From UHGV virus genome UHGV-0036853: a stretch of 64,000 nt of DNA, one strand, 5' to 3'. Shown here one piece after another: positions 16,800 through 64,000 of the stretch; within the stretch, counting starts at the first letter, position 1; every line of letters begins with the position of its first letter. The notes beneath the pieces are model-generated. The model was not told where the DNA came from and ran no database searches. It was given only the letters and a program-made list of their open reading frames with translations. Position numbers and translations under genes: made by a program. The stretch comes from a virus.

Positions 16800-16875
16800 T
16801 GGTGCCGGTTAACGGACTTGAACCGCTGACCATTCGCTTACAAAGCGACTGCTCTACCAACTGAGCTAAACCGGC
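16800..16875 (-). tRNA. tRNA-Thr (anticodon UGU)
   Basis: acceptor GCCGGTT/AACCGGC, D-arm TAGCTCAGTTGGTAGAGCA, anticodon loop TTTGTAA, T-loop GGTTCAAGTCC, CCA. Confidence 0.75.
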
Positions 16876-16879
16876 AATT

Positions 16880-16966
16880 TGGTGGGGAGTGATGGAGTCG
16901 AACCACCCGAGTCGCAATGACAGTAGATTTACAGTCTACCCCGCTACCCCTACGGACTAACTCCCC
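16880..16966 (-). tRNA. tRNA-Tyr (anticodon GUA), long variable arm
   Basis: acceptor GGGGAGT/ACTCCCC, anticodon arm GTAGA-CTGTAAA-TCTAC, T-loop GGTTCGACTCC, CCA. Confidence 0.7.
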
Positions 16967-16971
16967 TAAAT

Positions 16972-17046
16972 TGGCGATGGTGGGTGGATTCGAACCACCG
17001 ACCAGTTGGTTAACAGCCAACTGCTCTACCGCTGAGCTACACCATC
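16972..17046 (-). tRNA. tRNA-Asn (anticodon GUU)
   Basis: acceptor GATGGTG/CACCATC, anticodon arm GTTGG-CTGTTAA-CCAAC, T-loop GGTTCGAATCC, CCA. Confidence 0.7.
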
Positions 17047-17824
17047 AATTCGGCACTGCCAGTATTTATTACTCAACAGTGCCAATCGCGACGGTTTAGT
17101 TTCTGCCAGGAAACGCACCGCTACTTGCACTTTTCGTTAGTGCCAGACGCTTTCGACTTCGCTCAATAGTAGAAGGCAAACTCTTTAAGTAGATGATGTT
17201 TCTGAGGACAGCACCTACTTTGTAATTTATACAATGTGATGTATGGAATCATTTGTTGTGAAAACAGGCACCAATGGCAACAGTGGTTAAACCTACACAA
17301 CTATTCTGTCTTCACAACGTTGAGGCCACTACTCCGATTGAATGTTTGCCCAACATGTTACATATCAACGCTCGCCGGTATCTCTGTGAATAGAACCTTA
17401 GAATTGATAAAAATGTAATGGCCTCAACGTTGTGTGCTGGCTAACCATACCAGCCGGGCTACGTCGCCGCTTTTTAACCCAGTATAAACGACATAATTGA
17501 ACAAAATGACGTAACAGAATGGGCGGTCAGTGGCTAAGAATCCGGGAGTCATATGGAGTTGAAAATATACCGACCGCCCATTCTGTTACTTCATCGGAGG
17601 GAACACTCATGTTCCCTCCTGCGTTCTGCAATCACACTCGCTCAGTGTGTCCCATTTCGGTAACGAGGCTGGAAACTGACCTCGCTGGTGTTTGGCTTAT
17701 TAGGCTACTGCCAGATAGACTTCTTCGTTTGCACTTGTATTTAAGTTCAAACAGTCGCGTCTCAACGAAAACAAAGTCATCTTATACACAAAAGATAAGT
17801 AAGTAAATACTTATCAATATGTTT

Positions 17825-49331: not shown

Positions 49332-49993
49332 GAATGGACCTCATCGTGACTACCATTGTGATATTCCACCTTCACGCGTTCTTTGTAGTGCTTGGTGATC
49401 TGCATATCCGGGCGCAGCGCGTTCTTCAGGTCTTCGTGAGTCGTCGCCACCATTACCGTCGCACCAACCTTTCGAGCGGCACGCTGGAGGTTAGACGCCA
49501 CAACCTGAGCGGTTACACGGTCGAGAACAGCGCCGAACTCGTCAGCAGCCCACACTTTAGCGCCTGACTCAATCAGTTTGGCAATCTTGAGACGATATTT
49601 CTGGCCGTCTGACATTTCAGAAGGCTTGCGAACAAACAGATATGCATCGTTCAGACCAGCCATAGATAACAACCCAAGCGCATCACTGGTCGTTTTGCCC
49701 AACTGATCGATGACGTTAACCTCATTATCGAAGGTAAAATCATCGATGGAGGCTACAGACAGCCCTTCATCCTTCATCTGTCGTTGCAACTCGCGCAGCA
49801 CAACGGATTTGCCGGAACCGGATTGGCCGGTGATGTACACCACATCGCCCTGCTTCACTTCCAGCTCCAGATTGTCGTAAAGCGTCCACTCTTTTTCGTC
49901 CAGGCCAAGCCCGAACGACTCAGCGATTTCCAACGTGCGCGTGGTTTTATTTACGCGTGTCTGAAACGATACGTTGATGATGTATTTGCTCAT
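49328..49993 (-). CDS. stand-alone ABC-type ATPase
   Basis: Walker A GQSGSGKS, signature-like MSDGQKYR, Walker B VWAADEF, H-loop TTHE. Confidence 0.7.
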   Translation of the reverse strand: MSKYIINVSFQTRVNKTTRTLEIAESFGLGLDEKEWTLYDNLELEVKQGDVVYITGQSGSGKSVVLRELQRQMKDEGLSVASIDDFTFDNEVNVIDQLGKTTSDALGLLSMAGLNDAYLFVRKPSEMSDGQKYRLKIAKLIESGAKVWAADEFGAVLDRVTAQVVASNLQRAARKVGATVMVATTHEDLKNALRPDMQITKHYKERVKVEYHNGSHDEVHS

Positions 49994-50691
49994 GCAGCCA
50001 TCTCCCCGGAAGAGATCTTCTCCGCATATGCCACAAATGCGTCTACCCCGCTTTCTCCCGTCATTTCTTCCATGTGGGCAAGCAAATCACCAACAACAAT
50101 GGCAGAGCCAGCAGGGAGCGTTTTAAAGCCCAATACGTCGACAACACGTACTTCTTCCGCTGCAACTTCACGACTGATCTCGGTGTGTTCATCCTTCTGT
50201 CGTTTAGTTTCTTCGCCAAGATCGATAACTAGCGAGTCGGTGTCCATTTCTTCTGTCATACTGCCAACGAGAACATTCAACTCACGCTCTTCAAAGCCGA
50301 AAACCTCGATATCGTCCAGAACAAGCGACTCAAGCTCTTTCTGTAGCTTAATTGCATCGTAATCAATGCTGGCAAGTCGGTTATCTTCAAGGCGCTTCGC
50401 ACGAACCTCGTCATCACTGAGATCATCGCGAACAATAACCGGTACGCGCTCAAGTCCAGCAAAAATTGCAGCCTCACGGCGGCCGTGGCCAGTAATAATT
50501 ACGTCGTTCTTATCGACCGTAATTGGCTGGTCAAATCCGCGCTTTTTAATGGCTGCGGCTAGATCTCGGATCTGCTGTTCATCATGCTTTTTGGCATTCA
50601 TCTCATAGGGAATAAGATCTGCCGGGTCGCGATATACGATTTCAAACTTTTTGGTCATTACATACGCTCCTTGTAGTAGTCGACCAGCCAC
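49990..50691 (-). CDS. ParB/Srx-like domain protein
   Basis: ParB N-domain motif ITGHGRREAA. Confidence 0.65.
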   Translation of the reverse strand: MAGRLLQGAYVMTKKFEIVYRDPADLIPYEMNAKKHDEQQIRDLAAAIKKRGFDQPITVDKNDVIITGHGRREAAIFAGLERVPVIVRDDLSDDEVRAKRLEDNRLASIDYDAIKLQKELESLVLDDIEVFGFEERELNVLVGSMTEEMDTDSLVIDLGEETKRQKDEHTEISREVAAEEVRVVDVLGFKTLPAGSAIVVGDLLAHMEEMTGESGVDAFVAYAEKISSGEMAA

Positions 50692-51356
50692 ACCAGAGCC
50701 TCACCAGCGTTCTCCATTTCATTACCGGTGTTAATAGCCTGTTCTTTGATGATGTTTTTTATGGTTTCTGCAACACGATCTGACGCATCGAAAGTTACTT
50801 TGAAGCGCATGGTCTGATGTTCCGCACCCACACGTTCGGTTTTCTCCCGTTTGTCGGTATCGACAGGCTCATCACTACCACGAGACAACGCCTCCAGTGC
50901 TTCAAGGTCGATTGCCGCCTCTTTTGCTAAAACCATCGAGATTTCGTCGTCATACGGGGCGATTTCAGACAGTTGATAGTCAAGTTCTGACTGAATTTCT
51001 TCAATGAAGCGTTGCAATGCGATTTGGTCGTCTTCACCGTATCGCTCGTTGTCCACCAGTGACATCTGTTTAGCTACGACATCGCTAATTTTGCCCACAG
51101 AAAGCACTGGAACCGTTGAAATTCCTTGCTCAATAGCGGCACGCCAGCGATGTTCACCGCCGAGGATTTCAAAAAATCCATCTTCAAGTTCACGAGCCAA
51201 AATTGGCTTAAAAAAGCCCAATTTTTCGATAGAACCTTTCAGTTTTTCAAAATTCTGCGCACCAACCGAATTGGTGTTCCAGGTATTCGGGCGAAGGTTG
51301 GCAACATCAACCTGCAAAATCGTGATTTTTACATCCATTTTATTGCTACAATCCAC
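50658..51356 (-). CDS. ParB/Srx-like domain protein
   Basis: ParB N-domain motif ILGGEHRWRAA. Confidence 0.65.
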   Translation of the reverse strand: MDCSNKMDVKITILQVDVANLRPNTWNTNSVGAQNFEKLKGSIEKLGFFKPILARELEDGFFEILGGEHRWRAAIEQGISTVPVLSVGKISDVVAKQMSLVDNERYGEDDQIALQRFIEEIQSELDYQLSEIAPYDDEISMVLAKEAAIDLEALEALSRGSDEPVDTDKREKTERVGAEHQTMRFKVTFDASDRVAETIKNIIKEQAINTGNEMENAGEALVWLVDYYKERM

Positions 51357-54085: not shown

Positions 54086-54505
54086 ATGAAAGTAACAAAC
54101 CTAATTATTTTAACACTAGCCACATCACTAATTGGGTGTTCATCTTCATCTATATCTGTTTCAAAGGCAAAGTATGCACCTCAAAGCAGAATATTTAAAT
54201 ATCAAACACCACATGAGTCTAGTCTAACAATAGTTAGAGACAAAGGGCTGGTTGGTTCTGGATGTAACGCTTCCATATTCATCAATGGAGAAACGGCAGC
54301 AAAATTGGAACCTGGTGAAAAAGCAACTTTCTATCTTAATGAAGGAGATTGGATCGTTGGGACATCAATTGAAAGTTCAGGTCTTTGCGCATTTAACCCC
54401 TCTAGGATGGAGCGAGAAATAAAACTAAAGCAAGGCGACGCGAAAACATATCGGGTTTTCACTACCTGGGATGGTACAATGGATATATTGCCAACCACTT
54501 TATAA
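54086..54505 (+). CDS. lipoprotein (AT-rich island)
   Basis: lipobox LIGC. Confidence 0.5.
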   Translation: MKVTNLIILTLATSLIGCSSSSISVSKAKYAPQSRIFKYQTPHESSLTIVRDKGLVGSGCNASIFINGETAAKLEPGEKATFYLNEGDWIVGTSIESSGLCAFNPSRMEREIKLKQGDAKTYRVFTTWDGTMDILPTTL

Positions 54506-54509
54506 TGAT

Positions 54510-55034
54510 ATGACGACGAAAGACATCACCTACGGTGTGCCAGCAGAAGTCTGGCCTCGAGATTACACTAACGTTGAAAAACTACTGATGTTCTGGCGCA
54601 GAGAACAAATTCCTGTAAGGGCCACTCTCGAAGATGGTCAGGCGTTTTGCATGTACGTTTATGGCCTCATGCCATCTCGTAACAAAGTTGACCTTTGCCC
54701 AGCCCCTTTTGACAAAGAAAATCGTATAAGGCTCCCAATTGAACGCATTAGTACAATTGAATCAGGTGTGGTTGACAGTATCGCTCACGATTTCAAAGGT
54801 CGACTAACAGTTCACCCTGATTATGTCGATAATCGGCCATCACGCCGCGATTTTTTTGCAATTTGCAACCAAGCCTACAAAGCAAACAAATCTATAAGGG
54901 TGTACATGGCGGATGGCCGTGAAATTGAGGGGGTGTCAGCAGGCGCAGATGCTTGTCAGGTTACACTACGTGTCGAGAACGGTAGAAAAATAGTTGTTTT
55001 GTTCGATTGGGTTGAACGAATTTTGCCTTTTTGA
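54510..55034 (+). CDS. hypothetical protein (AT-rich island)
   Basis: ORF; start moved to ATG after upstream stop. Confidence 0.45.
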   Translation: MTTKDITYGVPAEVWPRDYTNVEKLLMFWRREQIPVRATLEDGQAFCMYVYGLMPSRNKVDLCPAPFDKENRIRLPIERISTIESGVVDSIAHDFKGRLTVHPDYVDNRPSRRDFFAICNQAYKANKSIRVYMADGREIEGVSAGADACQVTLRVENGRKIVVLFDWVERILPF

Positions 55035-55629: not shown

Positions 55630-56280
55630 ATGGCTAACATTATCATTTCTAAAAAATCCATCATTGAAGCTGCTTCCATTGTATCCGATGAACTGCGCGA
55701 AAAAGCAGATCTGGCAACTCAAACATATAACGAACATTATAAAAATGGTACGCACACTAAAGCAGACAAAGCAAATATGCAAGCTGCGACCACTAAACTT
55801 GCTTACTTCATCAACAACGTCGTAAACGCAGTAGAAGACGAAAAATTATGCTCTGTTTTCTACTATGCGATTAAAGCAAGCAAACAAGCGCCAGAAGTAT
55901 TTTTCCGTGATGCAATGACTAATAGTTATTCACTGGAAAAACTGGTTTATCTGGTTAAATCCATTAAAGCTGGTAAATGCGTTTATTCCGTCGCTGATAT
56001 GTCAGGATCTCGTGTATTCGCTTTAATCGATATGATTAACGACGAGATCGACACGTTCACTAATGGCGCTGTTTTCGATTTAATGAATGAAGCTAAAAAA
56101 GCGTGCGAAATTAAATTGGACGCTGGCTATACTCAAGCCAACCAGTTGATCAATCTTTGCGAACGTCTCGGACTTGTTGAGAAAGTCAAAGGAGCTGGGA
56201 GCGCAAAAGCTGGTACTCAGCAATATCGCTTCATTAAAAATGATTTCTACAATTATTTAGCTGATGCTTTCAAAGCGTAA
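55630..56280 (+). CDS. hypothetical protein with own strong promoter
   Basis: 216-aa ORF. Confidence 0.55.
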   Translation: MANIIISKKSIIEAASIVSDELREKADLATQTYNEHYKNGTHTKADKANMQAATTKLAYFINNVVNAVEDEKLCSVFYYAIKASKQAPEVFFRDAMTNSYSLEKLVYLVKSIKAGKCVYSVADMSGSRVFALIDMINDEIDTFTNGAVFDLMNEAKKACEIKLDAGYTQANQLINLCERLGLVEKVKGAGSAKAGTQQYRFIKNDFYNYLADAFKA

Positions 56281-56788: not shown

Positions 56789-56815
56789 GAGCGCCCACTA
56801 TGGGCGCTTTTTTCG
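56789..56815 (+). terminator. intrinsic terminator, copy 2 of identical hairpin
   Basis: agcgcccactatgggcgct followed by TTTTTT. Confidence 0.65.
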
Positions 56816-57400
56816 TTTCCAATACTTCCACCATAACGCGCCATCATTGGCGCGTTTTTTATTGTCTTTGACTCACTCCAACAACATAAAAATAAGCGCC
56901 AAAATAACGCCATAGACGCGCTTTTATATCCTTGCCAGTACATACCCATTACTTAACGCATTAACGCGCTTAAAACGCGTTATATTGCGCTATAACGTAT
57001 GGCTAATCATTAATTTTTATTCTTGCTATGTGATCCGCGTTTATTTGTCGGCGCGGATCGGCATTTTGTGTTGTTCTGTGTCCGCTCGCGTATTATGTGC
57101 GCGTGATTTTTCACATAATCACACCACTTAATCACGTATGTGATTACGCTACGAAAGAAATCTGGATGTCTCAGGCGACGAAAGTCATCATGATTTTCCC
57201 CGCTCGCCTGTCCGACAACCGCTGGTTGGATTCCACCAGCTTCCCGATGTTTTTTCTACATAAAGGCGAATGCAGCCGTTTCCCGAAAAAATCCTGGCCG
57301 TTTCCCGTCGGCTCATGAATACGTTCCTCGCCGTTTCTGAAAATTTCCCTGCGGCAGCTGGTGGCTATAGAGAAAGGGCCGTTTCTGGCCCTCTTCTCAG

Positions 57401-57883
57401 TTACACGCCATCAAGGATGTGGATGCGGTTGCTTGTGTATACATTCAACATAAAGTTAGCGCAAAACAGTTTCCATGTATCAACGCCAGCGGTATACGTA
57501 ATGTTTTTGCATTTAATTGCATTGTTGGCGATCCGCATCCCCTGCGATACTGCTTCATCGTCGGAAAATTTGAACGACGATTGAGTTTTAATCCAGACAG
57601 AAATCTGCGTAGCGAACTCAATCAGCTTGGACTGGCAGAATCGCCCGGAGCGCACCGGAAAGACGAACGTTCCGAATCCAGAATTTACCACATACGCTTT
57701 CTCAAATACCCGCGAGTAACGACGATTGCCAATGATGTCGCGTGCAATAATGCATTTTTCTTGTGCTGACAGTTCTACCGTCTCATTGTCGCGCCATGCA
57801 CCAAGTACTCGTTTTTCAATGTCAGAGAACGTTACAGCGATATTGCCATGTGCGGGTGCGTTTACAGTAGCGATAAAATTCAT
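57401..57883 (-). CDS. hypothetical protein
   Basis: ORF with conserved upstream motif. Confidence 0.5.
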   Translation of the reverse strand: MNFIATVNAPAHGNIAVTFSDIEKRVLGAWRDNETVELSAQEKCIIARDIIGNRRYSRVFEKAYVVNSGFGTFVFPVRSGRFCQSKLIEFATQISVWIKTQSSFKFSDDEAVSQGMRIANNAIKCKNITYTAGVDTWKLFCANFMLNVYTSNRIHILDGV

Positions 57884-60184: not shown

Positions 60185-60514
60185 TTACTCGAATACTTCA
60201 AGAAACTCCTGAACATCCCAATGCTGGACAAGGTGAAGATAGACCTTAGAAATCACGTCATTCTCGCTATCGCATGTGAAGTAGTACTTCTGGCTGCGGT
60301 TGTATGTGTCCACACAAAATTCGCTCATATCCATAAAGTCAGCATCTTCACCCATGTCGCAAATCATCAAAGCAGGTGCATCATCACGAGTCATCAGCTC
60401 AAGCACCCACCGCGAATTGATCAGAGTGGAAGACCAACCTTCTAACTCATAAAACTGATCAAACTCTTTTTGAGTCAATTTCTTGATTTGGTTGATGTCG
60501 ATATGTGCAAACAT
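60185..60514 (-). CDS. small acidic protein
   Basis: start at ATG 60514 behind AAGGA; D/E-rich. Confidence 0.45.
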   Translation of the reverse strand: MFAHIDINQIKKLTQKEFDQFYELEGWSSTLINSRWVLELMTRDDAPALMICDMGEDADFMDMSEFCVDTYNRSQKYYFTCDSENDVISKVYLHLVQHWDVQEFLEVFE

Positions 60515-60526
60515 AAAGCAATCCTT

Positions 60527-60580
60527 AAACAACATGTTTTCTTATTGGTGTTATTATCGCAATAACACACAGGCGAAAAA
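60527..60580 (-). promoter_or_regulatory. motif family 2 copy
   Basis: aaacaacatgttttcttattggtgttattatcg. Confidence 0.5.
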
Positions 60581-60699
60581 GGATTTTATTCCGGTGAATG
60601 TGGTTTTGGCAGTGAGTTTTCAGGTTCAGTACCGAGTACAATTTTTACATTATTCTGATTTAGTGGCCGAAGATGGCTGGTGGGCAGAATAATCCTCTC

Positions 60700-62000
60700 C
60701 CCGAAAACCTACTGAAATCGATTGTGACCCGCTGGCTGTCTGGCACAATTACGCTGTAGCTGGGCATTCAGAGGGAATCCAGCGGTAAGTAAGTCCGCCT
60801 GCACGTGAGCGTCTCTCTCCTTCCCGCACATTACAGGTGGGCAGCCGCAACTCTCCCTCACGCTATACCGGTACGCCACCGTTCCTGAACCGGCATCGAA
60901 CCTTTTCCCGAAATCCACACAGGCAACTCGACCGTTTCCCTGAAAACCTCCAGCCGTTCCCCGAAGGCAACCCAGCCGTTTCTGTAGCGGGATGCAGCCT
61001 TTTCCCTGTATGGACCGAAGGCTGACCGTAGGGGTGTTACGGGGGATAAAATCAGGAGTTGAATAAATACGAAAAAGGAGGCGACACCCCTCCTTCCCTC
61101 CCCACTTATACATACCTGGCTTCTTCGCTATACATGTTGTGTTTTATTCGTGTTTTATCTGTCTCAACCTCTCTATAGGCGTTAATGCTCACTCCTTCCA
61201 GAGCGTTCTATACGGCGACTATTCCTGTTGGTGAATTGGGTGTGTTGTTCTCTCTGTCGGTGTAAATGGTTTCGTTCGTTTTGCGGTGGTTCTTCTGTGG
61301 GGGTGTTCTCGTCGTTTTGGTGATTGTTCTTCTCCGTGTATGGAGTAATGGCAGGTGGGCGATTCCTTTCGTTATTGTGTTTGAGTTGTTTGTCTGGAGT
61401 GCGTGAAGGGCTTTTGTAGTTATTCGTGTATTGGGTAATGGCGTTTCCCGTGATTGTTATGTTTCGTGTCTTTTGGGATTGAGAGAATCCTTGCGGTTAC
61501 AGGCTTCGTTGGGTTTTCAGTGATTCTGGTGTTCTTCGCTGTTTGGGGAATGGCGTGTCGTGGGTATCGCGCGTGTGAATGTTTTCGGATTGCCTGTGAA
61601 AGTTAGGTTGGTTGTCCGGTAGCCTGGGAAGAAGAGGTGGGTCTTTTCGGTGGCCTGCCATAAAGAGGTTGGTTGTTTTTGGGAATGGCATGTGTGTTAT
61701 TTAGTTGTTTTGTTATGCCTGAAAATAAGTTGTTTATATGGTTGTGTAACGCAACGGGAGCGATTTTGAGCGTGTGTTTTTGTTGGTAGTGTGTTGAGTT
61801 GTCTGTGGTGAAAATTGGACGCTGTGGAGCTGTCTGCTGCGTAGGATTACGGGTATAAGAAGTGATGTGTGAAAACGTCAATTTTTTAGACCAAATCGGG
61901 TGAAAGCGTTGACGTTTCGTTGATCTGTTATTCAGTTGTTTTCTTGTTTGTATAAACAACTATAACCTATTGATATTTAAGGATGTGATTGCAGGCATGG
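60700..62000. other. ~1.3-kb gene-poor, strongly G+T-skewed (plus strand) region with spaced short repeats
   Basis: TTCCCnGAAA-like repeats at 60.70-61.0 kb; four spaced GGGnAATGGC-like repeats at about 61336, 61427, 61540 and 61681. Confidence 0.5.
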
Positions 62001-62087
62001 AAGGGGAGTAGTGGCGATCAACGGATTCTTATAGAAAAGAATCAAATTGTGACCGCCATTATCAACGGTTTGAATATGTTTTCAGAT

Positions 62088-62396
62088 TTACCAGTTCCAG
62101 CACTCTAGCCCTTCAACGACTGGTGCACCACAATCAAAATGTACAGAGTCAAAGCCTACATCAAGTACCTTCTGAATGTTAGCAATCGCGCCTTCGGATA
62201 TACCATATCGACGCAAGTTGTCTTTCCAGACATCATCCTGTAACCCGGCGTGGACAATACAACCGCCGTCAATTTGCGAAACCCAATCCAGCTCATTGCT
62301 TGCGATCATGAACCGGCGAGCATCTTCCTCTGATGTATGAGATGAACTGATCAATGCCACCTGGTAGGCTTGGGTAATGTTCAACATTTCAACCAC
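62088..62396 (-). CDS. hypothetical protein (last gene before chromosome junction)
   Basis: ORF with two upstream motif copies. Confidence 0.45.
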   Translation of the reverse strand: MVEMLNITQAYQVALISSSHTSEEDARRFMIASNELDWVSQIDGGCIVHAGLQDDVWKDNLRRYGISEGAIANIQKVLDVGFDSVHFDCGAPVVEGLECWNW

Positions 62397-62400
62397 TCCG

Positions 62401-62470
62401 AAACAATTTGTTTTCTTATATGGCTTATTATCTCAATTAACAAAAGTCAGAAAACAAATTGTTTTAGGCA
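62401..62470 (-). promoter_or_regulatory. two motif family 2 copies
   Basis: aaacaatttgttttcttatatggcttattatc and agaaaacaaattgtttta. Confidence 0.5.
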
Positions 62471-62547
62471 TATGTAAATCAGAAGGGATTGCGTCTATAT
62501 GAAAATGCCCAGCGTGTTGCCGGGCATTGCGAACAGAGGTTGTTTAG

Positions 62548-64000
62548 TTACTTAACCTGGTGGCCTGGTTTAGCGCCAGCATCCGGGCTTAACAGGAAGA
62601 TATCTTTCCCGCCAGGGCCAGCAGCCATCACCATGCCTTCGGAGATACCGAAGCGCATTTTACGCGGAGCCAGGTTAGCCACCATAATGGTGTGACGACC
62701 AATCAGTGCCTGTGGGTCTGGATAAGCAGAACGGATGCCTGAGAAGACATTGCGTTTTTCACCACCGAGATCCAGTGTCAGACGCAACAGTTTGTCAGAA
62801 CCTTCAACAAACTCCGCGTTTTCAATCAGCGCCACACGCAGGTCAACTTTGGCGAAGTCGTCAAAGGTGATGGTTTCCTGAATCGGGTCGTCAGCCAGTG
62901 GGCCAGTTACCGGTGCGGCTGTGGCTTTCACTTCTTCTTTGGATGCTTCCACCAGTGCTTCCACCTGTTTCATATCGATACGGTTATACAGTGCTTTGAA
63001 CGGATTCACTTTATGGCTCAACAGCGGTTGCTGAATACCATCCCAGGTCAGTTCTGTATTCAGGAATGCTTCTGCACGTTCAGTCAGTTTCGGCAGTACC
63101 GGTTTCAGGTAAGTCATCAGCACGCGGAACAGGTTAATGCCCATAGAGCAAATCGCCTGCAGATCTGCATCGCGACCTTCCTGCTTCGCCACCACCCACG
63201 GAGCCTGTTCATCGACATAGCGGTTAGCCAGGTCAGCCAATGCCATGATTTCACGGATAGCTTTACCAAATTCGCGGCTTTCCCATGCTTCGCCAATCAC
63301 TTCAGCGGCATCAGTAAAGGTTTTGTACAGTTGCGGGTCAGCCAGTTCGCTTGCCAGCACGCCGTCAAAACGCTTGTTGATAAAGCCCGCATTACGGGAG
63401 GCCAGGTTAACCACTTTGTTCACGATATCGGCATTCACACGCTGAACGAAATCCTCCAGGTTGAGATCGATATCATCAATGCGCGAAGACAGTTTGGCGG
63501 TGTAGTAGTAACGCAGGCTGTCAGCGTCAAAATGATTCAGCCAGGTGCTGGCTTTAATAAAGGTGCCGCGAGACTTGGACATCTTCGCGCCGTTCACCGT
63601 CACATAGCCGTGAACAAACAGGTTGGTCGGCTTGCGGAAGTTGCTGCCTTCCAGCATGGCAGGCCAGAACAGGCTGTGGAAGTAAACAATATCTTTACCG
63701 ATGAAGTGGTACAGCTCGGCGGTGGAGTCTTTCTTCCAGTATTCATCGAAGCTGGTGGTATCGCCGCGCTTGTCGCACAGATTCTTGAAGGAACCCATGT
63801 AGCCAATCGGTGCGTCCAGCCAGACGTAGAAATATTTACCCGGCGCGTTCGGAATTTCAAAACCGAAGTACGGCGCATCGCGGGAGATATCCCACTGTTG
63901 CAGGCCAGATTCAAACCACTCCTGCATTTTATTTGCCACTTGCTCCTGCAACGCGCCGCTGCGGGTCCATGCCTGCAACATTTCGCTGAAAGAAGGCAGA
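62548..64000 (-). CDS. metG: methionine--tRNA ligase, C-terminal two-thirds (partial, continues past window end)
   Basis: KMSKS motif, anticodon-binding and C-terminal tRNA-binding regions read as E. coli MetRS. Confidence 0.9.

Follow-up and report, generated by a model that had tools for sequence, protein, structure and literature searches.

Secondary immunity in temperate phages and phage-plasmids involves Rho-dependent zones or non-coding leaders, such as lambda tR1, P4 timm, N15 Pa-cA-Tc and P1 immI, and Rho itself requires an excess of C over G but not an equally strong bias of A over U. At iteron origins, for example RSF1010 oriV and the lambda ori, the iterons are followed by a GC-rich and then by an A+T-rich segment. 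Strong keto skew occurs in control regions of strand displacement, for example in the vertebrate mitochondrial D-loop and heavy strand.

In the window analysed here, a stretch of 64,000 nucleotides from an SSU5/Cyrano-type phage-plasmid with metG as cargo, a non-coding module at 60573..62070 recalls each of these systems in part. Its keto-skewed, ORF-less arm (61150..61950, read on the minus strand), which is G+T-rich on the plus strand and C/A-rich when read leftwards, resembles tR1, timm, Pa-cA-Tc and immI in the predicted untranslated, C-rich, G-poor and unstructured RNA after a repressor-controlled early promoter, and in its position, in a temperate phage or phage-plasmid, before genes of early lytic or antirepressor type, silent in the lysogen. 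In contrast to known Rho-loading sites, the arm is about tenfold longer, has an equally strong A over U bias and carries conserved repeated boxes; unlike in the four immunity systems, neither a small antisense RNA nor a complementary repeat was found here, and the genes downstream of the module have their own promoters.

The left-hand part resembles the lambda ori, RSF1010 oriV, P1 oriR-incA and P4 ori-crr in its direct repeats of ~22 bp followed by GC-rich and then A+T-rich DNA, and these repeats form another cluster at a distance of a few kilobases, as in P4 crr or P1 incA. Unlike iteron origins, the module has no adjacent initiator gene or DnaA boxes, its iterons lie just downstream of terminators and differ from those of the plasmid's RepB/RepA origin, and its flank is a 0.8-kb keto-skewed arm instead of an ordinary unwinding element. 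The size and type of the skew (T/C ~3 and G/A ~2.5 on one strand) match those of the mitochondrial D-loop and heavy strand, and here, as in the D-loop, the skew adjoins a conserved polypurine/G-rich tract and the end of transcription; unlike in the D-loop, it is limited to 0.8 kb with sequence-level constraint on top, and strand-displacement replication is not indicated.

Extent and conservation of the module

The module was delimited, with no strand assigned, by alignments of 11 and of 20 representatives (<93% identity to each other). It is bounded on the left by the promoter region of the minus-strand gene 60185-60535 and on the right by an abrupt border with variable cargo, where conservation collapses after ..GTGACCGCCAnTnTCAACG at 62068-62070. 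It is a real, protein-free control region of ~1.5 kb of hundreds of SSU5-type phage-plasmids of gut bacteria and is as strongly conserved as the genes of these phage-plasmids: 838 plasmid records across six genera match it, its length and skew persist throughout six genera, and blocks of 20-90 nt are invariant across the 20 diverged representatives. Within the arm, the window and SSU5 are 69% identical, compared with 47% at the four-fold degenerate sites of the neighbouring genes.

The module sits between a hot-spot of cargo exchange and a cluster of small early genes. The cargo beyond 62070 differs by lineage (metG here, DUF262 and a restriction-modification system in Klebsiella, other genes elsewhere), and the adjacent cargo gene is oriented into the module in 9 of the 12 relatives examined. 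IS elements are inserted in the module in several relatives, and pMT1 does not carry it at all, so the module is dispensable for plasmid maintenance. The sequence-only reading had placed the region near the end of an element, which was not borne out, since both flanks match ~110-kb circular phage-plasmids; the end of a chromosomal island was likewise rejected, because every match in E. coli is to a plasmid, and metG and apbC belong to the plasmid as cargo.

In public records the module is unannotated or mis-annotated as hypothetical proteins (CYRAN_103/104, SSU5_108/109 and various PGAP ORFs), and the ORFs annotated in it change strand and position from record to record. Stop codons occur in all six frames in each of the 11 homologues, indels of 1, 2, 4, 11 and 25 nt break the frames, and the variable columns are distributed over the codon phases as 80/94/86, with no codon signal. 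Protein coding on either strand was therefore rejected, in agreement with the initial view that the minus-strand ORFs are artefacts. A protein-based scan of genome contigs found nothing, no description of the module was found in the searchable literature, and the module, like its function, seems to be undescribed.

Composition and sequence elements

The G+T content is 71–77% over 61150-61950, against 50.6 ± 2.9% for the window. The highest 800-nt value (0.711, at 61214) lies about 7 sd above the window mean of 0.506 (sd 0.029), and elsewhere in the entire plasmid G+T never exceeds 0.605, which makes the skew of the arm unique. Between 61120 and 61860 the plus strand contains 14.6% A, 14.0% C, 31.4% G and 39.9% T, whereas 60700-61100 is rich in C (C 31.7%, G+T 45%), and the sign of the local skew flips at ~61.1 kb, from C-rich on the left to G/T-rich on the right. 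The strong G+T skew first noticed over 60700-62000 is thus real, but its extent had been drawn too widely.

A G+T content of 68–74% is kept in the arm in all lineages, even though these are only 57–70% identical, and the skew is present in 46 of 46 further measurable loci. The substitution spectrum of the arm at deep divergence equals the expectation from composition alone; an extreme keto skew at compositional equilibrium is an unusual and testable signature. The arm was tested for 10.5-bp helical and 3-bp periodicity, and neither was found.

Read in the minus sense, the arm RNA would contain A 0.40, C 0.30, G 0.145 and U 0.156, with a C/G ratio of 2–3.6 in most 78-nt windows over ~700 nt and of 1.2–1.5 at both ends. 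Neither strand folds better than shuffled sequence (z −0.52 for the minus and +0.85 for the plus strand), and pairing of the minus-sense RNA is precluded by the composition itself. The Rfam covariance search gave a best E-value of 2.5, with all scores far below the gathering thresholds, and the long structured RNA considered earlier was rejected on these grounds.

The repeats first noticed in the arm proved genuine. Boxes of the type GGKAATGGC / AGTAATGGC start at 61344, 61434, 61546 and 61681, with spacings of 90, 112 and 135 bp; four were observed against 0.006 expected, a number reached in none of 2000 dinucleotide shuffles. They correspond to the four GGGnAATGGC-like repeats of the sequence-only reading. 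All lie on the plus strand, as located by repeat search and alignments: box 1, TTCTTCTCCGTGTATGGAGTAATGGC (61317..61357, repeat family D1), of which ~40 nt are near-invariant in all representatives; box 2, ..GTGTATTGGGTAATGGCGTT (61407..61447); box 3, ..TTTGGGGAATGGCGTG (61519..61559); and box 4, TTTTGGGAATGGCATG (61677..61693, repeat family D4). A tandem pair of 31-mers, CGGTAGCCTG..AAGAGGTKGGT (61617..61678, plus strand, repeat family D6), has the invariant cores GGTAGCCTG and AGAGGT.GG (two observed, 0.007 expected).

Further to the right, an inner early-type promoter-proximal element, TGTTATTTAGTTGTTTTGTT, lies together with the conserved block TAACGCAACGGGAGCG at 61695..61762 on the minus strand (repeat family D9), a segment that also includes the operator-like palindrome AAATAAGTTGTTT (61723-61735). 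According to the alignments, the most conserved block, with GGGTATAAGA, occupies 61851..61945 and contains the inverted repeat GAAAACGTCAA (61871-61881) / TTGACGTTTC (61909-61918), as well as the early-type element in a second, outer copy, TGTTATTCAGTTGTTTTCTT (61926-61945). In this block, promoter-like sites are predicted in both directions, the leftward TTGACG-18-TATACC in all 20 representatives and a rightward one in 17 of the 20. RTCAACG sites in both orientations (61907, 61918, 62017 and 62061, within 61907..62068) form a cluster that ends at the cargo border, with four observed against 0.08 expected and none of 2000 shuffles reaching this number. The palindrome AAACAAnTTGTTT, like the iterons, the AATGGC boxes and the RTCAACG sites, is a candidate protein-binding site.

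In the left part of the module, repeat search and shuffles revealed an array of six plus-strand iterons CCGTTTCCC with the core CCGTT(T)CCC (60879..61019), each an imperfect palindrome TTTCCnGAAA. They start at 60879, 60901, 60932, 60954, 60976 and 60998, which gives spacings of 22/31/22/22/22 bp, and the pattern CC[GT]TT[TC]C[CT][CTG] was observed six times against 0.11 expected, as in none of 2000 dinucleotide shuffles. The phasing is the same in Salmonella, Enterobacter and Citrobacter lineages and is 22, 22, 22 in Klebsiella lineages. With these six copies and one more, conserved solitary copy at 60694, CCTCTCCCCGAAAACC (60694..60709, plus strand, repeat family D3), the TTCCCnGAAA-like repeats noted at the outset are established. 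A promoter-like site facing right, TTGTGA-16-CACAAT (60722..60749, plus strand), was predicted by a position-weight-matrix scan and recurs at one alignment position in 14 of the 20 representatives.

The iterons are followed by a conserved GC-rich segment of 22 bp, GACCGTAGGGGTGTTACGGGGG (61024..61045), and by an A+T-rich segment of 31 bp at 61046..61076 (24 of 31 bases A or T, 77%), which contains a conserved TTGAAT; the position of the latter is conserved in the alignment, but it is short and overlaps a hairpin. This hairpin (61075..61095, minus strand), AAGGAGG-GGUGUCG-CCUCCUU followed by U5 in this lineage, was predicted by a terminator scan. In the E. coli lineage it has the stem of 7–10 bp and the UUUUU tract of an intrinsic terminator (61095-61075, minus strand), and other lineages keep the hairpin with the U tract partly inside the stem. 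In the minus sense, 95.8% of the alignment cells pair and 35 of 120 cells are G.U, where the plus sense would have A.C mismatches; the hairpin is predicted to work in the minus sense only. It overlaps a conserved minus-sense polypurine tract (61087-61103) and the motif CACTTATAC (61103-61111).

Sequence comparison showed that the hairpin, a CCCCTC..CACTTA motif and the iterons are paralogous to a second locus outside the module (57215..57400, with plus-strand iterons at 57276, 57298 and 57332 and a hairpin) that closes the neighbouring early operon on its 3' side. In this paralogue the hairpin comes immediately after the stop codon of the minus-strand gene 57401-57883, and the paralogue is conserved in SSU5 and pMT1.

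Proposed transcription buffer, possible origin and other explanations

The anatomy of the module favours an ORF-less unit that is read leftwards, in the direction of nearly all flanking genes. The sequence AAGAAAACAA.., which follows the −10 box of at least eight minus-strand genes, recurs in the same sense at 61936 and 61705; the early-type element copies within the module have weakened −10 boxes, and the promoters there are predictions. Our tentative preference, with somewhat less than even confidence, is that the module serves as a transcription buffer between the cargo and the early lytic genes.

A leftward unit would start at one or two degenerate copies of the early promoter/operator (~61945 and ~61735), cross the arm and stop at the hairpin 61095-61075, to which the terminator of the neighbouring early operon is paralogous, with the six phased, putatively protein-binding iterons lying past it. 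The arm RNA would be C/A-rich, G/U-poor, unfolded and untranslated, and, because of this composition and the lack of folding and translation, would be an ideal loading zone for Rho. Together, the arm, the hairpin and the bound iterons would block or buffer transcription from the variable cargo and the long upstream operon, and would so keep both the early lytic genes and the array of iterons silent in the lysogen. We infer that the arm is transcribed from its own promoters in lytic growth and that Rho is the terminating factor. The winged-helix protein encoded at 55630-56280 is only a candidate for binding the iterons or the AATGGC boxes.

Several observations are consistent with such a buffer. 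The C-rich, G-poor stretch of nascent RNA (C 0.30, G 0.145) extends over at least the ~80 nt expected of a rut site, and it is predicted to be unstructured and untranslated (z −0.52; no conserved ORF or codon phase). In E. coli LF82 with Cyrano, the leftward cargo gene CYRAN_102 has ~57 normalised counts, and CYRAN_103, inside the arm and 110 nt downstream of CYRAN_102, is at the zero-read floor in the lysogen (PMC9928086, S1 Table), these counts being from the lysogen only and possibly not strand-specific. No intrinsic terminator was predicted between CYRAN_102 and CYRAN_103.

At the same time, the buffer explains only part of the module. A purely compositional Rho-loading site would not need the conservation observed in the arm (69% vs 47%), the 0.8-kb arm far exceeds known Rho-loading sites in length, and the near-invariant boxes (AATGGC, four to six copies; the tandem 31-mer; TAACGCAACGGGAGCG) are left unexplained. 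The six iterons receive just the vague role of a roadblock, and the arm transcript was not seen in the lysogen data.

The main rival, which is possible but to be doubted, is a lytic (secondary) origin of iteron type, in which a phage initiator would bind the six iterons and the A+T-rich stretch would melt. The G+T-rich plus strand to the right would be displaced, or would serve to load the DnaB-like helicase and primase of the phage; a leftward transcript that ends at the hairpin or polypurine tract might activate or prime replication, with the RNA processed by the phage RNase HI, and the other iteron cluster, at a distance of 3.6 kb, would play the part of P4 crr or of a copy-control locus. 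Helix-phased direct repeats of 17–22 bp, of which an iteron origin has at least three, are present here in six copies, and the order of six 22-bp-phased iterons, 22 bp of GC-rich DNA and a 31-bp segment of 77% A+T, the change of skew sign at ~61.1 kb, as at origins, and the dense conserved footprints over 1.5 kb, which would fit a nucleoprotein complex, all argue for it. Moreover, since DnaE, a DnaB-like helicase, a toprim protein, RNase HI, RecA and a ligase are all phage-encoded, there must be a phage-specific origin somewhere. The dispensability of the module in the plasmid state (its absence from pMT1 and the IS insertions) is as expected of a lytic origin, and the plasmid origin lies elsewhere, with different iterons.

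Other observations speak against an origin. No initiator gene adjoins the iterons, and the flanking ORFs have no Rep-type domain; in homologue searches, structure prediction and fold search, the neighbouring 160-aa protein had no PDB fold match, and for the 216-aa protein only a generic winged helix was obtained. The stretch 60.5–62.1 kb has only two GATC sites and lacks any DnaA box within one mismatch of the consensus, and no conserved DnaA boxes, 13-mers or GATC clusters were found in the module. The iterons are imperfect palindromes, which are commoner for dimeric regulators, and their paralogue with its hairpin ends an ordinary operon, which links these repeats with transcription-unit ends. 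A 10.5-bp periodicity is absent from the arm, and we know of no bacterial or phage origin with such a skew over 0.8 kb.

The origin with iterons proposed by the sequence-only reading is thus supported only in part, by the 22-bp-phased array, the GC-rich and A+T-rich stretches and the skew flip; the iterons are not the replicon's iterons, DnaA boxes and an adjacent initiator are lacking, the paralogue stands at an operon end and pMT1 has no module. The plasmid replication origin as such was rejected for this locus: the replicon iterons TATGCTGCCAGCGGT adjoin an initiator gene annotated as RepB-family (repA in related records) ~34 kb away, and pMT1 persists without the module. An R-loop origin driven by a G-rich rightward transcript was not favoured either, since a convincing promoter is lacking where the arm begins on the left, and the hairpin works in the minus sense only.

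Two bolder proposals, unlikely even when taken together, are that the keto-skewed arm provides the loading strand in a phage origin of a new, transcription-primed kind, or that it yields a trans-acting decoy, in which an ORF-less RNA of ~0.8 kb, made from an early promoter and consisting almost entirely of C and A, would titrate Rho or another ssRNA-binding host factor. More generally, an early, unstructured C/A-rich RNA acting in trans might sequester a ssRNA-binding factor (Rho, Hfq or the FljA-like protein 54471-55034), as a host-takeover or regulatory RNA and not a passive barrier, but this is quite unlikely. It would have the same transcription-unit anatomy as the buffer, the conserved arm and its repeated boxes could be protein-binding sites on the RNA, and a nearby gene encodes a homologue of an RNA-binding-type repressor (PF03614, E 1.3e-83, with a weak Hfq-like match). 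However, GGA (CsrA), AANAANAA, Hfq (ARN)n and YC dinucleotide motifs are not enriched beyond composition in comparison with shuffles, so that a protein sponge for Hfq, CsrA or Crc, of the CsrB or CrcZ type, was rejected, the transcript was not seen in the lysogen data, and neither an Rfam family nor a structure signal was found.

A pac/cos site, another DNA-level assembly site such as a dispersed centromere or a site where the two ParB-like proteins load, or a polar barrier to forks or transcription bound by the winged-helix protein is also quite improbable. Several families of iterated sites with fixed orientation and conserved positions would suit packaging or assembly, the better iterons resemble a half-degenerate GTTTC..GAAAC palindrome, and two proteins with ParB_N domains are encoded at 49990-51356; the phage-plasmid N15 is known to have dispersed sites of this kind as its centromere. 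Against this, the terminase genes lie ~13 kb to the left, whereas pac/cos usually adjoins the small terminase gene, phage records begin at arbitrary or terminase-based coordinates, and pMT1 is stably inherited without the module, which argues against an essential centromere. The packaging-recognition region suggested earlier found no support.

It is highly improbable that the module is a decaying gene remnant or filler with the skew as a functionless mutational by-product, as the IS insertions, the loss from pMT1 and the composition-like substitution spectrum at deep divergence might suggest, given the 69% identity of the arm against 47% at neutral sites, the blocks of 20-90 nt invariant across 20 representatives, the length and skew kept in six genera, and repeats far above chance.

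Phage-plasmids of the SSU5/pHCM2/pKpn type rank with the most common extrachromosomal elements in E. coli, Salmonella, Klebsiella and Enterobacter and carry resistance and virulence cargo. Deciding between a lytic origin and a barrier before the early genes would explain how expressed cargo is tolerated beside lytic genes, and knowledge of the module's role would offer a way to cure, engineer or induce these elements; a trans-acting C/A RNA decoy, if true, would be an RNA-based device of host takeover. Additionally, a Chi octamer, GCTGGTGG (60676..60683, plus strand), is conserved in most lineages near the left edge of the module; with 19 Chi copies per 64 kb in both orientations, a special role was rejected for it, and it is probably not specific to the module.

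Genomic setting and conservation of the module

The window is a 64-kb portion of an SSU5-type phage-plasmid, and a chromosomal source is excluded. All 243 E. coli records matching 60500-62500 (90–97% identity) are plasmids of ~110 kb, with no chromosome among them; the phages Cyrano (the phage-plasmid pLF82 of E. coli LF82), CMS-2020a and PhiR41_1 also match this stretch, and SSU5 and the Klebsiella phage-plasmids do so at 68–72% identity. In the matching records metG and apbC are plasmid genes, with phage genes coming next, and the location “near the element end” proposed by the sequence-only reading was therefore wrong, the two genes having probably been mistaken for host flank. Beside the module, the plasmid thus carries as cargo a complete gene for methionyl-tRNA synthetase (metG) together with apbC (62548-64000 and beyond). 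The phage-plasmid also contains a tRNA gene cluster (~16800-17060, minus strand), annotated in the related record p009_B as Asn, Tyr, Thr and Ser, and two neighbouring ParB N-terminal domain proteins (49990-51356, minus strand) upstream of the terminase operon, where transcription diverges. Across the whole 64-kb window there are 19 copies of the Chi octamer GCTGGTGG, in both orientations; a rough estimate puts the chance expectation at about two copies, and the observed density is similar to or above that of the E. coli chromosome.

A distant search of PLSDB found the region in 838 plasmids (Klebsiella 430, Escherichia 224, Enterobacter 90, Salmonella 49, Citrobacter 25, Cronobacter 9, and others), where its annotation is nearly always missing; no Yersinia record matched. 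An exact-pattern scan added 44 viral and 3 genome contigs, and the arm, the skewed part of the module (61150-61950), was G+T-rich (0.63–0.78) in all 46 measurable loci from that scan. Two contigs filed under unrelated phyla, L063 (a Bacillota MAG contig) and L064 (a 604-nt Catenulispora contig), contain this enterobacterial sequence, most likely through contamination or mis-binning of public assemblies.

Across 20 aligned representatives (<93% mutual identity), the conserved stretch extends from the promoter of the gene 60185-60535 as far as 62070, where conservation collapses; the cargo beyond varies by lineage (metG in the window, DUF262 and a type I restriction-modification system in Klebsiella, an autotransporter, and others). 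Invariant blocks of 20–90 nt occur within this span, and arm G+T is held at 68–74% in lineages merely 57–70% identical. Between the window and SSU5, identity is 69% in the arm and 47% at the four-fold degenerate positions of four genes nearby. The arm is under constraint, even though at the deepest divergence its substitution spectrum is near the composition-only expectation, G<->T being the most frequent change. One plasmid, p1919D62 (L007), is a recombinant with an SSU5-like left part and a right part like the E. coli lineage, the switch point lying within the AGAGGTGGGT tandem repeat (window ~61665-61680).

Anatomy and coding capacity

The G+T skew reported earlier for 60700-62000 is real at 61120-61860 (A 14.6, C 14.0, G 31.4, T 39.9%) and narrower than claimed, since 60700-61100 contains 31.7% C and is not G+T-rich. 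Over 800 nt, G+T peaks at 0.711, while the window averages 0.506 (sd 0.029), and nowhere in the rest of the whole plasmid does it exceed 0.605. Both repeat families noticed in that reading are present far above chance, neither observed count being reached in any of 2000 dinucleotide shuffles: CCGTT(T)CCC occurs six times at 60879-60998 (0.11 expected), and GGKAATGGC / AGTAATGGC boxes occur four times, at 61344, 61434, 61546 and 61681 (0.006 expected). Most relatives have six AATGGC boxes with fixed spacing (52, 41, 45, 90 and 142 bp).

Taken from left to right, the anatomy comprises first iteron array B, six iterons at 60879-61019 spaced by 22, 31, 22, 22 and 22 bp, each an imperfect palindrome TTTCCnGAAA; the phasing is identical in the Salmonella, Enterobacter and Citrobacter lineages, and is 22, 22, 22 in the Klebsiella lineages. 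A GC-rich 22-bp segment and a 77% A+T 31-bp segment follow. The hairpin at 61075-61095 scores as an intrinsic terminator in the minus sense, in which 95.8% of its cells are paired (12 distinct sequences); G.U pairs, which become A.C mismatches if read in the plus sense, account for 35 of 120 cells, and covariation is modest because the purine arm pairs readily with the pyrimidine arm. The skewed arm carries a tandem pair of 31-mers (61617-61678) and a 20-mer at 61695 and 61926. The most conserved block, 61851-62070, contains the inverted repeat GAAAACGTCAA-N27-TTGACGTTTC and four RTCAACG sites (between 61907 and 62068). A position-weight-matrix scan predicted a leftward promoter, TTGACG-18-TATACC, in all 20 representatives, and rightward candidates at 60744 (14/20) and 61931 (17/20).

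The module is non-coding on both strands. Stops occur in all six frames of all 11 homologues, among which the longest ORFs switch frame and strand; lineages differ by indels of 1, 2, 4, 11 and 25 nt, and variable columns of six homologues with few mutual indels are spread 80/94/86 among the three codon phases. Public annotations conflict, with CYRAN_103/104 of Cyrano on the minus strand and SSU5_108 of SSU5 and several PGAP ORFs on the plus strand. The minus-strand ORFs are accordingly composition artefacts, as had been suspected. A long structured RNA, also suggested, was rejected: a 701-nt stretch showed no folding advantage over shuffled sequence in the minus (z = -0.52) or the plus sense (+0.85), and a permissive Rfam scan gave chance-level matches only.

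Function of the module

The plasmid replicon, a RepB/RepA gene flanked by >14 TATGCTGCCAGCGGT iterons, lies ~34 kb from the module; the stably inherited Yersinia pestis relative pMT1 has lost the arm and array B, and in several relatives the module is disrupted by IS elements. It can therefore be dispensed with in the plasmid state. The insertions in or beside it comprise IS100, another IS21-type and an IS3-type element (L065, 39700-41650; L019; L026; L004, ~4715), and module fragments persist beside DUF262 and restriction-modification cargo in large Klebsiella IncFIB plasmids.

The termination factor Rho classically acts on unfolded, untranslated C-rich RNA. Read leftwards, the arm RNA (A 0.40, C 0.30, G 0.145, U 0.156) has a C/G ratio of 2–3.6 in most 78-nt windows over ~700 nt, falling to 1.2–1.5 at both ends, and it can be neither folded nor translated. 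In published RNA-seq of LB-grown LF82 lysogens, with counts not necessarily strand-specific, the cargo gene CYRAN_102, directed leftward into the module, gave ~57 normalised counts, CYRAN_103 within the arm was at the zero-read floor and CYRAN_104 over the iterons gave ~14; metG was weakly expressed (~16) and apbC more strongly (~92) (PMC9928086, S1 Table). No intrinsic terminator was predicted between CYRAN_102 and the arm.

Module A (57215-57400) is a second copy of the arrangement of iterons, hairpin and CCCCTC..CACTTA, kept in SSU5 and pMT1. Its hairpin comes immediately after the stop codon of 57401-57883, a minus-strand gene, and terminates the early small-gene cluster; by analogy, the skewed arm stands where a leftward transcription unit would have its gene body.

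The best-supported reading, which we hold tentatively, is a transcription buffer in the form of a leftward unit that lacks ORFs. It draws on the Rho-type RNA, the cargo-border position, the strand specificity of the terminator and the silence of the arm in the lysogen even though the gene upstream is expressed. The Rho-loading arm, the hairpin and protein-bound iterons would together shield the early lytic genes. This reading leaves the conserved boxes, the A > U bias and the length unaccounted for.

The main rival, an iteron-type lytic origin, is rather unlikely. In its favour, a GC-rich and then an A+T-rich segment come after the phased iterons, the skew changes sign at 61.1 kb, footprints are dense, the phage encodes its own replisome genes, and dispensability in the plasmid state is in keeping with it; however, an adjoining initiator gene and DnaA boxes are absent, and in each of the two modules the iterons lie behind a terminator. 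A trans-acting decoy RNA, which lacks motif support, is improbable, and so, to a like degree, is a packaging or centromere-type site; functionless decay is very improbable. No description of the region was found in the literature searched, and its keto skew is unusual.

Operator-like elements and candidate binding proteins

The element ..AAGAAAACAA.. occurs twice at the right end of the arm (61936 and 61705). In at least eight minus-strand genes of the window it follows a TGnGATAAT-type -10 box and is half of the palindrome AAACAAnTTGTTT, one full copy of which lies at 61723. The window holds 13 copies of this 13-bp palindrome (12298, 23974, 26004, 48009, 48034, 57904, 58389, 59139, 60042, 60527, 61723, 62401 and 62452), mostly ~12 nt past such a -10 box within 5' leaders of minus-strand genes. 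It has the look of an operator for a phage regulator acting genome-wide, much as P1 has its dispersed C1 operators.

Between the plus-strand block and the minus-strand early genes, which are read towards each other, is a second non-coding region (56815-57400). It is kept in SSU5 and pMT1 and carries a terminator hairpin, inverted repeats, TAACGCG-type repeats and iterons identical to those of the module (57276, 57298 and 57332). The adjacent 160-aa protein (57401-57883, minus strand) is conserved family-wide, and its confidently predicted structure (pLDDT 89, pTM 0.78) had no significant fold match in a PDB search. This protein and the winged-helix protein 55630-56280 were the two outcomes of a search for an initiator; the latter is a candidate DNA binder, nothing more.

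FljA is a post-transcriptional repressor that binds the flagellin mRNA leader. The product of 54471-55034 (plus strand), annotated “transcriptional regulator”, is clearly homologous to FljA (Pfam PF03614, E 1.3e-83), also gives a weak Hfq-like match, and may recognise the palindrome-bearing leaders.
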